From Kofleriaceae bacterium (lineage in GTDB: Bacteria > Myxococcota_A > Polyangia > Haliangiales > Haliangiaceae): 11,708 bases of DNA. Numbering within the stretch: position 1 is the first letter of the stretch; each line of letters opens with the position of its first letter. Positions 7,813 to 11,233 of this stretch are shown here, piece after piece. The position numbers and the translations under genes are program-made. The notes beneath the pieces were generated by a model, which saw only the letters and a program-made list of their open reading frames with translations, made no database searches and was not told the origin of the DNA. The stretch is from positions 14,016-25,723 of the forward strand of contig JBFWSC010000003.1 of assembly GCA_050248555.1 (NCBI GenBank), read 5' to 3'.

Positions 7813-9092
7813 TGGCGTTTCTCGACGACGGCGAAGCCATTGCCGTTCTTCACCGCGCGACGTAGCACCGCGAGAAAGCGCGCGACCGGATCCTTCGCGA
7901 CCGATTTCGGTGGATCGATGGCGAATGGCCACTCGGACTTCATGTGCCGATCGAGTAGCGCCACGAGCTTCGCAGAACCGCCATGCGTCTTCTCGAGCGC
8001 GTCGAATGCAGCGAGCAGCGCGCGCGCTTCGGTGGGCGAATAGAGATCGTCGTCCGTTCGGGACGCTGCGGGGAGCAACTCCAGCAACCGCCGGATGCTC
8101 TCGAGATCGCCGACGACTTGCGACTCCTCTTCGGTGACGACGACGTCATCGCTCAGGGCCACATCGATGGCCTGGAGCCGAAACTCGATCTTCTGGGCCT
8201 GCGCACTCCGGCGTGCGTTCTCGATCTCGTCGGCCGGTGCTTCGATGATTCGCAGTACGAGCGGAGTTCCTGCACGCGGGCCTAACCGGCGCTTCTTCGC
8301 GCGATTCTCTTCGACGAACGCATCCAGGCGTCGCATCGACTCTTCCGGGCTGACCACCTCGGGCTCGGGCTCGGGCAGCGGCTCCTCCTCGATGACCCAG
8401 AGGCCATCGCCCTCTCTCGCCTGGGTCAGGAGCTCGACGAGCTCGTCCTCGATCGGCCCTCGTCGCGACTTCTTGATCTTCGCCAACGTCGCCTCGACCG
8501 CCTCGCGAAGCTCGACCGGCGACCGTCCGTCAATCGCCTTGCCGGTCACGTCCTCCACCCGCTCCGTGAACGACTCCCACATAGCCCGCGCGCCATCGAC
8601 CTGGAGGTGGCGCGAGGCCGTCGCGCGCGTGCGAAGCTCGGGCTCCGAGGTGCGTGCCGGAGCGAGGTACATGCCGAGGCGCGCCAGCACGGGGCGTGGC
8701 GCTCGAGGCTCCTCTTGGAGCCAGAATCCTGCCGTCGCGTCGACGGGCTCGCGCAAGAACTCGGCGACCGCGGTGAAGAACGGCGTCCGCCTCGCGGCCG
8801 GCAGCGTCGAGAGCGCAGCCGTTGTGGCCTCGCGGCGCGCACGCGTCGACAGATCGTCCCAGCGCTTCTTCGTCGCGCGACTCACCAGCTCGACGACTGA
8901 GGTGATCGAGTCGGACCGTCCCGGGACCACGCGCGTCGCGATCGCCATGCGCGCGAGCCGCGCGAAGAGCTCGGCCTCGATCGCGTGGTGGTCCTCTCCG
9001 CTTCGCAGCGCCTCGAATGCTCGCTCGCCGAGCGCACCGAGTTCTGTGTCGTACGCGGGTGGAACGAGAAAGAGTCCGATGCGACGCACCAC
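7809..9092 (-). CDS. hypothetical acidic protein, 427 aa, translationally coupled to the upstream DUF4157 gene; candidate partner or immunity factor
   Basis: On the minus strand the GTG start at 9092-9090 overlaps the TAG of the DUF4157 gene (9094-9092) by 1 nt. Amino-acid composition is normal for coding sequence rather than the poly-Arg of wrong-frame ORFs. It has an E/P-rich linker (EEEPLPEPEPEVVSPEE). It contains the motif MRRLDAFVEENRAKKRR, which is also present in the toxin. Its stop (CTA at 7809-7811) overlaps the stop of the convergent ATPase gene. I recognise no known domain. Confidence 0.65.
   Translation of the reverse strand: MVRRIGLFLVPPAYDTELGALGERAFEALRSGEDHHAIEAELFARLARMAIATRVVPGRSDSITSVVELVSRATKKRWDDLSTRARREATTAALSTLPAARRTPFFTAVAEFLREPVDATAGFWLQEEPRAPRPVLARLGMYLAPARTSEPELRTRATASRHLQVDGARAMWESFTERVEDVTGKAIDGRSPVELREAVEATLAKIKKSRRGPIEDELVELLTQAREGDGLWVIEEEPLPEPEPEVVSPEESMRRLDAFVEENRAKKRRLGPRAGTPLVLRIIEAPADEIENARRSAQAQKIEFRLQAIDVALSDDVVVTEEESQVVGDLESIRRLLELLPAASRTDDDLYSPTEARALLAAFDALEKTHGGSAKLVALLDRHMKSEWPFAIDPPKSVAKDPVARFLAVLRRAVKNGNGFAVVEKRH
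8286..8336. repeat. copy 1 of a ~50-nt near-repeat encoding M-R-R-L-D-A-F-V-E-E-N-R-A-K-K-R-R within the 427-aa gene
   Basis: Plus-strand text is cttcttcgcgcgattctcttcgacgaacgcatccaggcgtcgcat. Compare cgcttcgcgcggttctcctcgacgaacgcgtcgagacgagccat at 10139-10189. About 40 of 47 nt are identical and the peptide is the same. Confidence 0.8.
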
Positions 9093-11233
9093 TAGCGAAC
9101 CTTATCGATGAACTCGTCGAATGTGTCGATCGCCGAGTTGGGAACGAGCTCGACCTTCCATCCGAGATCGAGCGCCTCCTTCTCGAACGCTGCCATCGTC
9201 GTCTTGTCGAGCCCCTTGTAGCCATCCGCCGACACGAACAAGACCTTGTCGGTCACATCACTCGCACGCCTTCCCATCACGCTCGCGGTCGTGCCGAGGC
9301 CCGCGTTGTGTCGCGCGAGCTGTGCGATCGTTTCACTTCGCTTGGAGGCGTCGAGCCACGTCGTCGTGCTCCAGTGCTTGACCTCGCCAACCGCGAGCTC
9401 GCCCATGTCGCTCTGGAGCAAGAGGTCGACGCTCTTGTTGCCTCCGTAGTCGATGCCGCGGCGCATCTCCTTGATGCTCGCGCCCTTTCGTTTCTTGAAC
9501 ACCGACTTCACGAAGCTCGGTGTCTTCACGAAGCGTGCGACGCCCTCTTCGCCGAGAAAACCGACCATCTTGCTCGCGAACGAGTCGCGCGACTTCGACG
9601 CGATCTTCCGTTTCTCGATGATGTCCTCGAGTACGTTCCACGGTAGATGCGACGCTTGATCGGTGAACGCGACGATCGAGTCGGGTTTGAGCTTCCCGGA
9701 CTCGAGCTTCTTCGCGATCCACGTGACGTCGGCGGTTCCTTTGATCTGCCGATCCATCAGCTTGATGATCAGATCGCGATTCTTCGTCTTGTCGTAGATC
9801 GCCTTGAGCGCCTTGACCTGCCCGCGCTTCAGCTTCGACGCGGTCTTGAGCAGGAGCTTCGCTTCGTCGTCGATGTGCTCGAGCAGCTCGACGCCGATCT
9901 TCTCGAGCTGCTTCGATCCCTTACCGAGGGCGCCTCGAAGCTTCGCGGCGCCTTTGATCTTGTGGACCGGCGTGATCGCGAGGAGGAGATCCACCGGGCC
10001 CTCGACCGCGAACATGCTGAGAAACAGGACAAAGGGCAGCGTCGCTGCGACCGCTGCGCCCTGAATGTTCTGGCCGTACGCGTGGCGCTGTTCCTGAAGA
10101 GCTTGGACCTCCTTCTCCTCGTCGGTGGGCTCCGTCTCCACGCGTCGCTTCGCGCGGTTCTCCTCGACGAACGCGTCGAGACGAGCCATCGCGATCTCGG
10201 GCGCCGTGTCGATGAACTTCGCATCGGCTTCCTTCATCGCCGCCGCCGTCGCATTGGTGAAGGCCACGTCGATCTCGAGCATCGTCTGCGAGACCAACGA
10301 CTCGCGGCGGAAGAACATCGGCTCGATCCCATCGGCTGAGATCGGGAGCCAGGCGCCACCGCCGATGTAGCCCGTGATGCCGTAGCGGAACGAATCGATG
10401 CCTCCGTAGGCGAGCCTCAGCCAGCACCTCCGTGACGCGAGCTCCGCGGCGACGGCTCGCGCCCCGGCGTTGAAGAACGCGCCGTGCTCGCTCGACGAGT
10501 AGAAGCTCGGTGCGAGGATCTCGAGCGGATTGATGTCGATCTCGGTCGCGACCTTCCCGCGCAGCTTCGCGGCGGCGTCCCTCTCGTCCTCCCATGGCTT
10601 GCGTTCTCTCGCGCGCTTCTCGATCGCCGCGGTCGCGCCATACGTGATCGGCGGCAGCGTCGCGAGCGTTTCGCCGAGCTGCCTGAAGCGCCGGTCGTAT
10701 CGGATGAAGTTGAAGAACTGCTCGAGGATCTTGTCCTTGTTACTGAGGCGACGAAGGTACGGGTACGTCCTCAAGAGGTGATCCGTGATCTTCGTCTGGT
10801 CCTGCGAGTAGTCGGGATCCGGCATTCGGTCGAACATCGCGGGCGCGGCCGCATGCTGGACCTGCGGCATCGAGGCCGGATGCGGACCGACGGAGACTGT
10901 TCGCGCGAGCTGACGGGCTTCCAGCTCGGCACCGTCGGGGTTCGTGCTGCTCGTACCGTGCTGTTGCGCTTGCGCGACGTGCACCATCTCGTGCGCGATC
11001 AGCTCGCGCCCGCGCGCCTGATCGGGATTGTACTGACCCGCTCCGAAATAGATGTCCGACCCTATCGTCACGGCGCGCGCGCTCGTCGCCTCGGCGAGCG
11101 CCGCGGCACGAGCATCGGCGTGCACGCGAACGCGGTCGAGCGAGAACATCGCCCGCGGCGCGGACGGCGCCTGGCGCGCCGCGGTATCGGCGCTCGCGGT
11201 CACCAGCTTCGATGCGGGTCGCTGCGCCTTCAT
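9092..11233 (-). CDS. DUF4157 domain-containing multidomain protein, 713 aa: N-terminal HExxH DUF4157, a central unknown region, a hydrophobic segment, and a Lys-rich lower-GC C-terminal module with a PD-(D/E)xK-like motif; putative polymorphic toxin or effector
   Basis: The ATG at 11233-11231 is preceded by GGGGGG and lies 13 nt after the stop of the upstream ORF. Residues 28-90 (FSLDRVRVHADARAAALAEATSARAVTIGSDIYFGAGQYNPDQARGRELIAHEMVHVAQ) match the DUF4157 signature (DxxRVHxD ... G.DIxF..G.Y.P.S..G..LLAHEL.HVxQ) including HEMVH. The hydrophobic stretch AAVAATLPFVLFLSMFAVEGPVDLLLAITPV spans aa 392-420. Residues ~421-600 are very Lys-rich (KIKGAAKLRGALGKGSKQLEK...). The C-terminus carries VDLLLQSDMGELAVGEVKHW, a D ... 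ExK nuclease-like pattern. There is no N-terminal signal peptide. Confidence 0.85.
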   Translation of the reverse strand: MKAQRPASKLVTASADTAARQAPSAPRAMFSLDRVRVHADARAAALAEATSARAVTIGSDIYFGAGQYNPDQARGRELIAHEMVHVAQAQQHGTSSTNPDGAELEARQLARTVSVGPHPASMPQVQHAAAPAMFDRMPDPDYSQDQTKITDHLLRTYPYLRRLSNKDKILEQFFNFIRYDRRFRQLGETLATLPPITYGATAAIEKRARERKPWEDERDAAAKLRGKVATEIDINPLEILAPSFYSSSEHGAFFNAGARAVAAELASRRCWLRLAYGGIDSFRYGITGYIGGGAWLPISADGIEPMFFRRESLVSQTMLEIDVAFTNATAAAMKEADAKFIDTAPEIAMARLDAFVEENRAKRRVETEPTDEEKEVQALQEQRHAYGQNIQGAAVAATLPFVLFLSMFAVEGPVDLLLAITPVHKIKGAAKLRGALGKGSKQLEKIGVELLEHIDDEAKLLLKTASKLKRGQVKALKAIYDKTKNRDLIIKLMDRQIKGTADVTWIAKKLESGKLKPDSIVAFTDQASHLPWNVLEDIIEKRKIASKSRDSFASKMVGFLGEEGVARFVKTPSFVKSVFKKRKGASIKEMRRGIDYGGNKSVDLLLQSDMGELAVGEVKHWSTTTWLDASKRSETIAQLARHNAGLGTTASVMGRRASDVTDKVLFVSADGYKGLDKTTMAAFEKEALDLGWKVELVPNSAIDTFDEFIDKVR
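9100..10000 (-). other. compositionally distinct (lower GC, Lys-rich) C-terminal module of the DUF4157 protein
   Basis: By eye this stretch is ~52-58% GC against ~70% elsewhere in the window. Lys codons (AAG/AAA) dominate here, whereas the rest of the window strongly prefers Arg. High GC returns immediately in the downstream 427-aa gene. Confidence 0.6.
10139..10189. repeat. copy 2 of the near-repeat, encoding M-A-R-L-D-A-F-V-E-E-N-R-A-K-R-R-V (aa 349-365 of the DUF4157 protein)
   Basis: See copy 1. This copy lies just upstream (in protein terms) of the hydrophobic segment and the low-GC module. Confidence 0.8.
10964..11152 (-). other. DUF4157 domain (putative Zn-metallopeptidase-like HExxH, HEMVH at ~10979-10993) within the 713-aa protein
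   Basis: The domain is recognised by eye from the conserved motif string. Coordinates are computed from the residue positions. Confidence 0.75.

Follow-up and report, generated by a model that had tools for sequence, protein, structure and literature searches.

A DUF4157-headed gene of a Kofleriaceae bacterium probably encodes a modular nuclease toxin with a candidate immunity partner

Previously, the DUF4157 domain was shown to mark toxins of extracellular contractile injection systems (eCIS), a restriction-endonuclease-type eCIS-associated toxin (EAT), EAT9, was found to be toxic, and most validated antibacterial EATs had no identifiable immunity gene (PMC8213781). Among 1130 predicted DUF4157 eCIS toxins, 983 have no annotated effector domain (PMC11297309). 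In AlgoCIS, cargo is loaded via a disordered N-terminal domain and the AAA+ protein Alg15 (preprint 10.64898/2026.05.27.728243). DUF4157-headed eCIS toxins, nuclease EATs (EAT9, XisH) and C-terminal nuclease cassettes of two parts that are followed by immunity genes (CdiA-CT/CdiI, SitA/SitI, TseT/TsiT) are already known. Here we analyzed a stretch of 11,708 nt (the window; GC ~69%) on contig JBFWSC010000003.1 of a Kofleriaceae bacterium, in which a minus-strand open reading frame (ORF) encodes a 713-amino-acid (aa) protein 100% identical to NCBI entry P0001, 'MAG: DUF4157 domain-containing protein [Kofleriaceae bacterium]' (MAG, metagenome-assembled genome). Our results indicate that this gene probably encodes a modular, eCIS-associated (DUF4157-marked) polymorphic nuclease toxin with a candidate immunity partner. 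The observations behind this reading are a DUF4157 head, a predicted nuclease fold with an invariant catalytic set, shuffling of domains among relatives, a conserved partner gene, an adjacent eCIS-type ATPase and eCIS operons beside homologues. The protein is an expected type of toxin, not a new principle, and it is not a recently imported cassette. Three things are new: an unnamed PD-(D/E)xK family, in which a predicted membrane helix and a basic helical stretch form a fixed prefix; a dedicated partner family of this module; and a cassette common to DUF4157-type and lipoprotein-type heads.

Like DUF4157 EATs (Geller et al. 2021; Danov et al. 2024) and Cgo1 and Cgo2, which are cargo of AlgoCIS, the window protein consists of a peptide predicted to be disordered, a DUF4157/HExxH domain, a linker or middle region and a C-terminal effector; it also resembles them in that an Afp15/Alg15-type ATPase gene is nearby and that sheath, tube and baseplate operons are found next to homologues. 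Unlike DUF4157 EATs, the window copy is not visibly beside structural genes, belongs to an unnamed C-terminal family, and has a conserved hydrophobic helix and a conserved downstream partner.

The DUF4157/HExxH head, which had been proposed from the letters alone, was borne out by a match to PF13699 (DUF4157, renamed eCIS_core) with E 6.4e-22 and 78 bits versus a cut-off of 22. This was the sole Pfam match of the 713-aa protein, and scans of it against NCBIfam and PADLOC were empty. The HExxH motif, HEMVH (aa 81-85, nt 10979-10993), was intact in 8 of 8 aligned DUF4157-bearing relatives. The protein begins with MKAQRPASK, and the pattern MKAQxP..K recurs in its close homologues P0043, P0068 and the L005 protein (P numbers denote proteins and L numbers the fetched loci). 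By analogy with AlgoCIS cargo (preprint 10.64898/2026.05.27.728243), the predicted disordered peptide at this end may have a role in loading. The middle domain was modeled confidently by AlphaFold2 in the full-length protein (predicted local distance difference test, pLDDT, 83-96). A Pfam scan and structure searches gave it no Pfam family and no convincing structural neighbor or solved-structure match. It is kept in the long relatives P0043-46, P0054, P0057, P0066 and P0078, with or without DUF4157, and stands without DUF4157 in three of them (P0046, P0057 and P0066). One relative of 858 aa, P0045 (L011, 716-3292), has two tandem DUF4157 domains with two HExxH motifs, followed by the same middle domain and C-terminal module.

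An exhaustive phmmer search with aa 400-713 against 1.84 billion representative sequences yielded 61 proteins at E<=1e-3, of which 23 reached E<=1e-30. The match spanned all 314 residues in nearly all of the 61 proteins and was always C-terminal. An alignment of 24 homologues (A1) showed that this 314-aa module starts with a hydrophobic helix, continues with a helical region rich in Lys and Arg and ends in a predicted PD-(D/E)xK nuclease, so that the K-rich middle, previously set apart as a separate region, is instead part of one conserved unit. The hydrophobic segment at aa 392-420 that had been noticed in the sequence was confirmed as the sole strongly hydrophobic stretch of the protein (Kyte-Doolittle value of 2.09 for aa 392-410). 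This segment and the (E/D)GPxDLLL..P motif that follows it were kept in 24 of 24 aligned relatives, with low model confidence at aa 392-420. The adjoining basic region (aa 421-545), in which the modeled helices fall within residues 429-539, aligned end to end in most homologues.

The suspicion of a C-terminal restriction-endonuclease-type fold was likewise upheld. The string DLLLQSDMGELAVGEVK was located at 9377-9427, and the D...ExK residues that it contains were placed on predicted strands beta-2 and beta-3. In AlphaFold2 models of both the module (pLDDT 83.4, predicted template modeling score, pTM, 0.70) and the full protein (pLDDT 82.0, pTM 0.60), E562 lies on the helix 546-568, D603 on the strand 600-608 (strand 2), and E617 and K619 on the strand 613-619 (strand 3). 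On these models, aa 546-713 are predicted to have the canonical PD-(D/E)xK arrangement, with the core fold alpha-beta-beta-beta-alpha-beta. All four residues were invariant in the 24 aligned homologues, E562 within a GxxGE helix and E617/K619 within EVKxW, as were G558, W626, Q638, L639, H642 and W692. This conservation suggests that the D603/E617/K619 and E562 motif exceeds chance.

The predicted nuclease fold was likened to Can2, LlaBIII, Shedu SduA, Card1, Cap4 and HamA, and Foldseek matches were the same in kind, and weak. Weak NERD (PF08378) matches were obtained for 10 of the 24 relatives (best E 6e-4, below the curated threshold), and weak UPF0102/YraN (PF02021) matches for 4 of the 24 (best E 3e-3), with a 'faint' precomputed match for P0075. 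The 713-aa protein itself had no NERD match even at E<=10, which places it outside NERD as that family is defined; it had no UPF0102/YraN match either, and no relative reached the gathering score of that family. Scans of Pfam, NCBIfam and PADLOC with aa 400-713, aa 560-713, aa 96-399, the partner and the 1575-aa protein encoded upstream of the toxin found no family, and a PDB sequence search with the protein and the module profile returned nothing meaningful. These results agree with the earlier view that named families do not cover the C-terminal domain. The nuclease domain appears to represent a divergent and as yet unnamed branch close to NERD and YraN, from which this family differs by an extra conserved W626, a QLxRHN helix, W692 and a C-terminal F..hID.hR tail. 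It had no detectable sequence-family membership that would join it to EAT9 or to the XisH 'cloud' domain of eCIS loci, and EAT9, by its description, is encoded by a separate gene, three genes downstream of a DUF4157 gene, whereas the window protein is a fusion.

Two of the searches were of limited reach. A word-indexed homologue search with aa 96-399 was empty and missed the protein's own entry, so that it was uninformative, and a word-indexed search with the module profile found 3 proteins versus the 61 of the exhaustive search, so that its negatives are weak for the module family. No relative was found in viral contigs. Pattern scans of genomes and metagenomes gave two and three further loci, respectively.

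Next to its conserved interior, the module was found behind different N-termini. It follows DUF4157 and the middle domain in P0043, P0044, P0045, P0054, P0068, P0078, P0101 and the L005 protein, the middle domain alone in others, and, in proteins of 408-450 aa (one of them from a Myxococcota MAG), short N-termini that bear a lipobox-like ..GC signal peptide. It is also found behind 1200-aa secreted N-termini, where the match is limited to the distal part of the module. Conversely, DUF4157 is joined elsewhere to PF14410, PF15604, PF15650, PF14449, PF15541 and PF01522, and the C-termini of other DUF4157 proteins include GH-E HNH, Ntox15, Tox-REase-9, PT-TG and polysaccharide deacetylase domains. 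Such two-way shuffling of heads and toxins is what marks polymorphic toxins (sensu Zhang et al. 2012), and it supports the polymorphic-toxin build that the sequence-only reading had suggested.

The lipobox-bearing relatives invite comparison with two other delivery routes. Like SitA of myxobacteria, which is transferred by outer-membrane exchange and has SitI as immunity protein, the 408-450-aa relatives combine a lipobox, a conserved non-catalytic region and a C-terminal nuclease, and the gene beside theirs encodes a cytoplasmic partner, with tandem arrays in some cases (L007). Unlike SitA, the window protein has no signal peptide, lipobox or N-terminal hydrophobic segment, and the six families of SitA escort domains are ~375 aa long versus ~200 aa for the helical region here. 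In contrast to the PD-(D/E)xK toxins of CdiA-CT/CdiI (EC869 4g6u, Y. pseudotuberculosis 4zqu), the toxin has an eCIS-type head (lipoprotein heads in relatives) and not a two-partner-secretion filament, and it lacks a VENN demarcation motif; its helical segment might serve in entry.

Some copies of the module were found in repeated or possibly mobile settings. Three tandem pairs of a lipoprotein-type toxin (425-429 aa) and a partner (355-373 aa) lie at 2-8475 of L007. L013 (1-16126) is made up of three ~5.1-kb units, each with a 483-aa ORF, a 648-aa toxin without DUF4157 and a 367-aa partner; this contig (its name ends in 'c', which we took as circular) could represent either a small element in several repeats or a concatemer produced in assembly. 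In L005, from a second Kofleriaceae MAG, a Terminase_6C gene for a phage terminase large subunit (5032-6813, minus strand) lies ~2 kb upstream of a DUF4157 toxin homologue. Some toxin copies may ride on mobile elements.

The toxin gene is followed by the gene for a 427-aa protein that consists of two copies of a ~130-aa domain (copy 1, RIGLFLVPP ... GFWLQEEP; copy 2, RLGMYLAPA ... GLWVIEEEP), a helix motif shared with the toxin and a C-terminal extension. The presence of two copies follows from the alignment of the 171-aa L005 partner (E 4e-9) to two separate regions of the 427-aa protein, and the partners of L005 and L006, 168-171 aa in length, are formed by a single ~130-aa domain. The 311-aa L011 partner is homologous to the 427-aa partner, C-terminal extension included, and the toxin-following ORFs of L006 and L010 are homologous to it as well. 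When the profile of the DUF4157-type partners was aligned by hhalign with that of the lipoprotein/middle-domain-type partners, the probability was 95.6% (E 1.3e-8, 290 columns). We then searched the six-frame ORFs of all fetched loci with both partner profiles and found a partner immediately 3' of the module in the window, L004, L005, L006, L007 (three pairs), L008, L010/L014, L011, L013 (three) and L016, i.e., 14 pairs at 10 distinct loci.

The locus in L006 (8593-10950), from a Kofleriaceae MAG with a 3.68-Mb contig, is rearranged: the ATPase ORF breaks off at ~aa 470 and leads into the remnant of a toxin. This remnant starts inside the nuclease domain, without the hydrophobic helix and the GxxGE helix, and an intact partner follows it. 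The arrangement looks like a displaced cassette with retained immunity, and an assembly error of Oxford Nanopore (ONT) reads is possible. That the partner follows the module nearly everywhere and is kept intact beside the L006 remnant is a pattern expected of immunity genes, which makes the partners candidate immunity proteins.

The toxin and its partner have in common a near-identical helix, ..RLDAFVEENRAK.., at aa 343-364 of the toxin and aa 247-268 of the partner (8289-8354), both on the minus strand. BLASTP aligned the two with 16 of 22 residues identical (E 3e-6), and the DNA is 82% identical over 44 nt (family D3). A motif of the LDxxhEE type occurs across most of the module family, with Leu and Glu best conserved, and a weaker sharing of the motif between toxin and partner was seen in L005, L010 and L011. 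Among four toxin/partner pairs, the locus-specific match was 14 of 16 positions in the window and 6-8 of 16 elsewhere, where it was not always the best match. Since the match is striking in the window only, we do not claim co-evolution of the two motifs. The sharing could reflect gene conversion, a common docking site or pairing of the helices.

The gene that converges on the partner gene encodes a 605-aa ATPase with a winged-helix N-terminal region and a Cdc48-D2-like AAA domain. Its stop codon overlaps that of the partner gene by 4 nt (7809-7812), which leaves no space for a terminator between them, and a promoter and terminator scan found nothing above shuffled expectation and no terminator above chance in 7600-11708. 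The best full-length plasmid match of the ATPase (tblastn, 42%) is in an eCIS locus of a Brasilonema plasmid with DUF4255, baseplate and tail genes, and afp15-type ATPases of Serratia match it at 41.6%. Toxin and partner adjoin an ATPase gene in both other Kofleriaceae loci, in the same convergent order in L005 and on one strand in L006, where the cluster of ATPase, remnant and partner abuts sheath, gp19 tube, spike and gp25 genes. Furthermore, the gene for the full-length homologue P0043 (L010/L014) is the divergent neighbor of a complete operon of sheath, tube, CIS_tube, GPD and Baseplate_J genes, with a hub gene too.

The coordinates of all features are collected in Table 1. In the ~19-kb neighborhood seen in longer contigs (L001-L003), the genes for the ATPase, partner, toxin and 1575-aa protein are accompanied by those for a hybrid histidine kinase, an HlyD/AcrB efflux pair, DUF4132, NAGPA and an FHA/sigma-54 activator. 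The toxin ATG has a GGGGGG run 4-9 nt 5' of it. Upstream of the 1575-aa gene (L001, 3094-7821), and overlapping it by 8 nt, is the DUF4132 gene (L001, 2043-3101). Neither of these two genes was found beside homologous toxins, and their link to the toxin may be incidental; searches of Pfam, PADLOC and other families with the 1575-aa protein gave no match. A 137-aa ORF at 11247-11660 was rejected as a separate small gene, as it is the tail of the 1575-aa gene. The kinase and efflux genes (1-5929) look unrelated to the toxin cluster, and long ORFs in other frames, e.g. 3859-7812 and 3095-6103, were set aside as artifacts of high GC.

Table 1. Features of the window, with positions counted from its first nucleotide.
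Feature	Position	Strand	Basis or remark
Whole toxin gene, DUF4157-headed nuclease toxin candidate	9092..11233	-	ORF list; TAG stop 9092-9094
Predicted disordered N-terminal peptide, aa 1-29, candidate loading signal	11147..11233	-	pLDDT 33-41, full-length model
DUF4157/eCIS_core, aa 23-92	10958..11167	-	PF13699
Middle domain, aa 130-345	10199..10846	-	Confident fold of helices and a small sheet; family-specific
Helix motif ..MARLDAFVEENRAKRR, aa 343-364, start of conserved C-terminal module	10142..10207	-	BLASTP versus partner
Predicted membrane helix, aa 392-420, then (E/D)GPxDLLL..P motif	9974..10060	-	Hydropathy, conservation
Lys-rich all-helical region, aa 421-545, between hydrophobic helix and nuclease	9599..9973	-	22 K in 125 aa
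Predicted PD-(D/E)xK nuclease domain, aa 546-713	9095..9598	-	alpha-beta-beta-beta-alpha-beta-alpha-beta
Candidate catalytic residues	E562 9548-9550, D603 9425-9427, E617 9383-9385, K619 9377-9379	-	
Partner gene, 427 aa, candidate immunity protein	7809..9092	-	GTG start overlaps toxin stop by 1 nt
AAA+ ATPase, 605 aa, convergent, Afp15/Pvc15/Alg15 type	5995..7812	+	Pfam AAA 4.6e-25 and winged-helix domain (WHD)
3' end of 1575-aa gene	11247..11708	-	13 nt upstream of toxin, same strand; longer contigs L001-L003
Hybrid histidine kinase with receiver domain	28-1692		
HlyD-type membrane-fusion protein	1724-2797		
AcrB-type resistance-nodulation-division (RND) pump	2798-5929		

A mechanism for the proposed toxin can be outlined, whose steps of loading, injection and neutralization we infer from work on AlgoCIS and Photorhabdus virulence cassettes (PVC). 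By this analogy, the Afp15-type ATPase would recognize the disordered N-terminus, unfold the toxin and load it, N-terminus first, into a particle encoded elsewhere in the genome. Once injected, the nuclease would cut DNA or RNA of the target cell, and the 427-aa partner, with its translational coupling to the toxin, would bind and neutralize the nuclease in the producer. More speculatively, the hydrophobic helix and basic region might act as a membrane-entry or escort segment that takes the nuclease across or onto the inner membrane of the target; this role is proposed because the same unit is fused to lipoprotein signal peptides, where a nuclease would need passage from the periplasm. A stronger form of this idea holds that the helix and the Lys/Arg-rich region are a self-contained, portable escort unit that takes the nuclease over the inner membrane of the target on both the eCIS and the outer-membrane lipoprotein route, and that the partner, which would recognize the toxin by the shared LDxFVEE helix, is both immunity protein and holdase. 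We consider this form decidedly unlikely. If it were true, the periplasm, not the cytoplasm, would be the destination of cargo for some eCIS, and one toxin/immunity cassette would be common to two mechanistically unrelated delivery systems in Myxococcota.

The sequence-only reading had described the C-terminal part as low in GC and compositionally foreign, and had hypothesized that a host-type DUF4157 protein had lately had its C-terminal cassette replaced by horizontal acquisition. The switch from Arg to Lys at the hydrophobic segment is real: Lys residues number 13 of 391 in aa 1-391 versus 39 of 322 in aa 392-713 (3% and 12%), Arg residues number 36 versus 15, and Lys exceeding Arg is unusual for a genome of 69% GC. 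Total GC also falls, from 0.666 in the N-terminal half to 0.608 in the C-terminal half. The lower GC therefore stood, and the foreign origin did not. GC at third codon positions (GC3) is 0.857 versus 0.848 in the two halves (Fisher p=0.75) and is even over the length of the gene, with all 50-codon windows at 0.80-0.92; the GC drop is confined to codon positions 1 and 2 and is therefore an effect of amino-acid composition. Lys codon choice in the C-terminal half (34 AAG, 5 AAA) is that of the neighboring genes (70 AAG, 3 AAA), with AAA slightly commoner than in the N-terminal half (5 of 39 versus 0 of 13), a small point in favor of replacement. The module region has 15-20% K+R in every homologue examined, so that the abundance of basic residues is a trait that the module has conserved. 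The domain order is the same in full-length homologues at 37-41% identity, so that the fusion of DUF4157, middle domain and module is old, and the occurrence of middle domain and module without DUF4157 points to exchange on the N-terminal side. A recent replacement of the C-terminal cassette is thus largely refuted, and we give it very little credence.

Other accounts concern the partner, the cell that the nuclease would act on, and whether the protein leaves its producer. We considered that the partner might act as a chaperone or adaptor, covering the hydrophobic helix and handing the cargo over to the ATPase, in the way of the Eag chaperones that serve effectors with membrane helices in type VI secretion systems (T6SS), a role compatible with immunity. 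This would fit the position of the shared helix motif just upstream of the hydrophobic segment, and the co-occurrence of the partner with the part of the module that contains the hydrophobic helix; a 1199-aa relative without this helix in its match also has no partner. However, the partner also follows lipoprotein-type toxins, which are Sec-exported and have no ATPase, and the L006 partner is intact beside a remnant devoid of the hydrophobic helix, as expected of a protective immunity gene. A chaperone role is therefore on the unlikely side. We regard as improbable an anti-phage or abortive-infection system in which a membrane-anchored PD-(D/E)xK effector, restrained by the partner and controlled by the ATPase, kills the producer on infection. 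The likeness of the fold to Can2, Card1, Cap4, Shedu SduA and HamA would suit such a system, as would the terminase gene of L005, the integrase/resolvase/ParDE island around P0101, and a hydrophobic helix flanked on its C-terminal side by basic residues, as would fit anchoring in the inner membrane and a cytoplasmic nuclease. The ATPase also gave PADLOC matches to IetA (E 9e-28) and an NCBIfam match to IteA, but the latter scored 92 bits versus a cut-off of 510, which amounts to generic AAA similarity and places the ATPase outside IetAS. PADLOC was empty for toxin and partner, viral contigs held no relative, the best full-length relatives of the ATPase are in eCIS loci, homologues abut eCIS operons, and DUF4157 is a strong eCIS marker (PMC8213781). 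The protein could instead be a resident membrane protein of its producer, e.g. a NERD-like nuclease or regulator anchored by the helix, with DUF4157 as protease, and no intercellular toxin. NERD-family proteins reportedly often have membrane helices. The apparent operon with DUF4132 and the cytoplasmic-looking 1575-aa protein, and the lack of eCIS genes in the ~19 kb seen locally, would agree with a resident protein. The shuffled N-terminal heads, the tandem toxin/partner arrays of L007 and L013, the eCIS operons adjoining homologues, the tight coupling of the downstream partner and the upstream genes that are not conserved in homologous loci all argue against it, and we find it hardly credible.

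The eCIS-toxin reading also has observations that weigh against it. No eCIS structural gene was found in the ~19 kb read around the window copy, whereas an EAT is expected within about ten genes of an eCIS core operon. P0101 is part of an island that carries integrase, resolvase, DnaB-like and ParDE genes, and no eCIS gene was seen within 10 kb of it. At ~25-30 aa, the predicted disordered N-terminal peptide is short, and a membrane helix is awkward in a cargo that has to travel through the tube lumen. In addition, the distant 1199-aa form in L012 has no downstream partner, the sole exception among the loci with readable downstream DNA. Altogether, our results still favor a DUF4157-marked, modular nuclease toxin with a candidate immunity partner as the probable identity of this gene.

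The locus defines one 'dark' effector family, with a confidently predicted fold, four candidate catalytic residues, a candidate immunity partner and a dedicated ATPase. As a compact system of three genes, it lends itself to work on the ways in which eCIS cargo is neutralized, loaded and moved into its target (cf. PMC8213781, PMC11297309).

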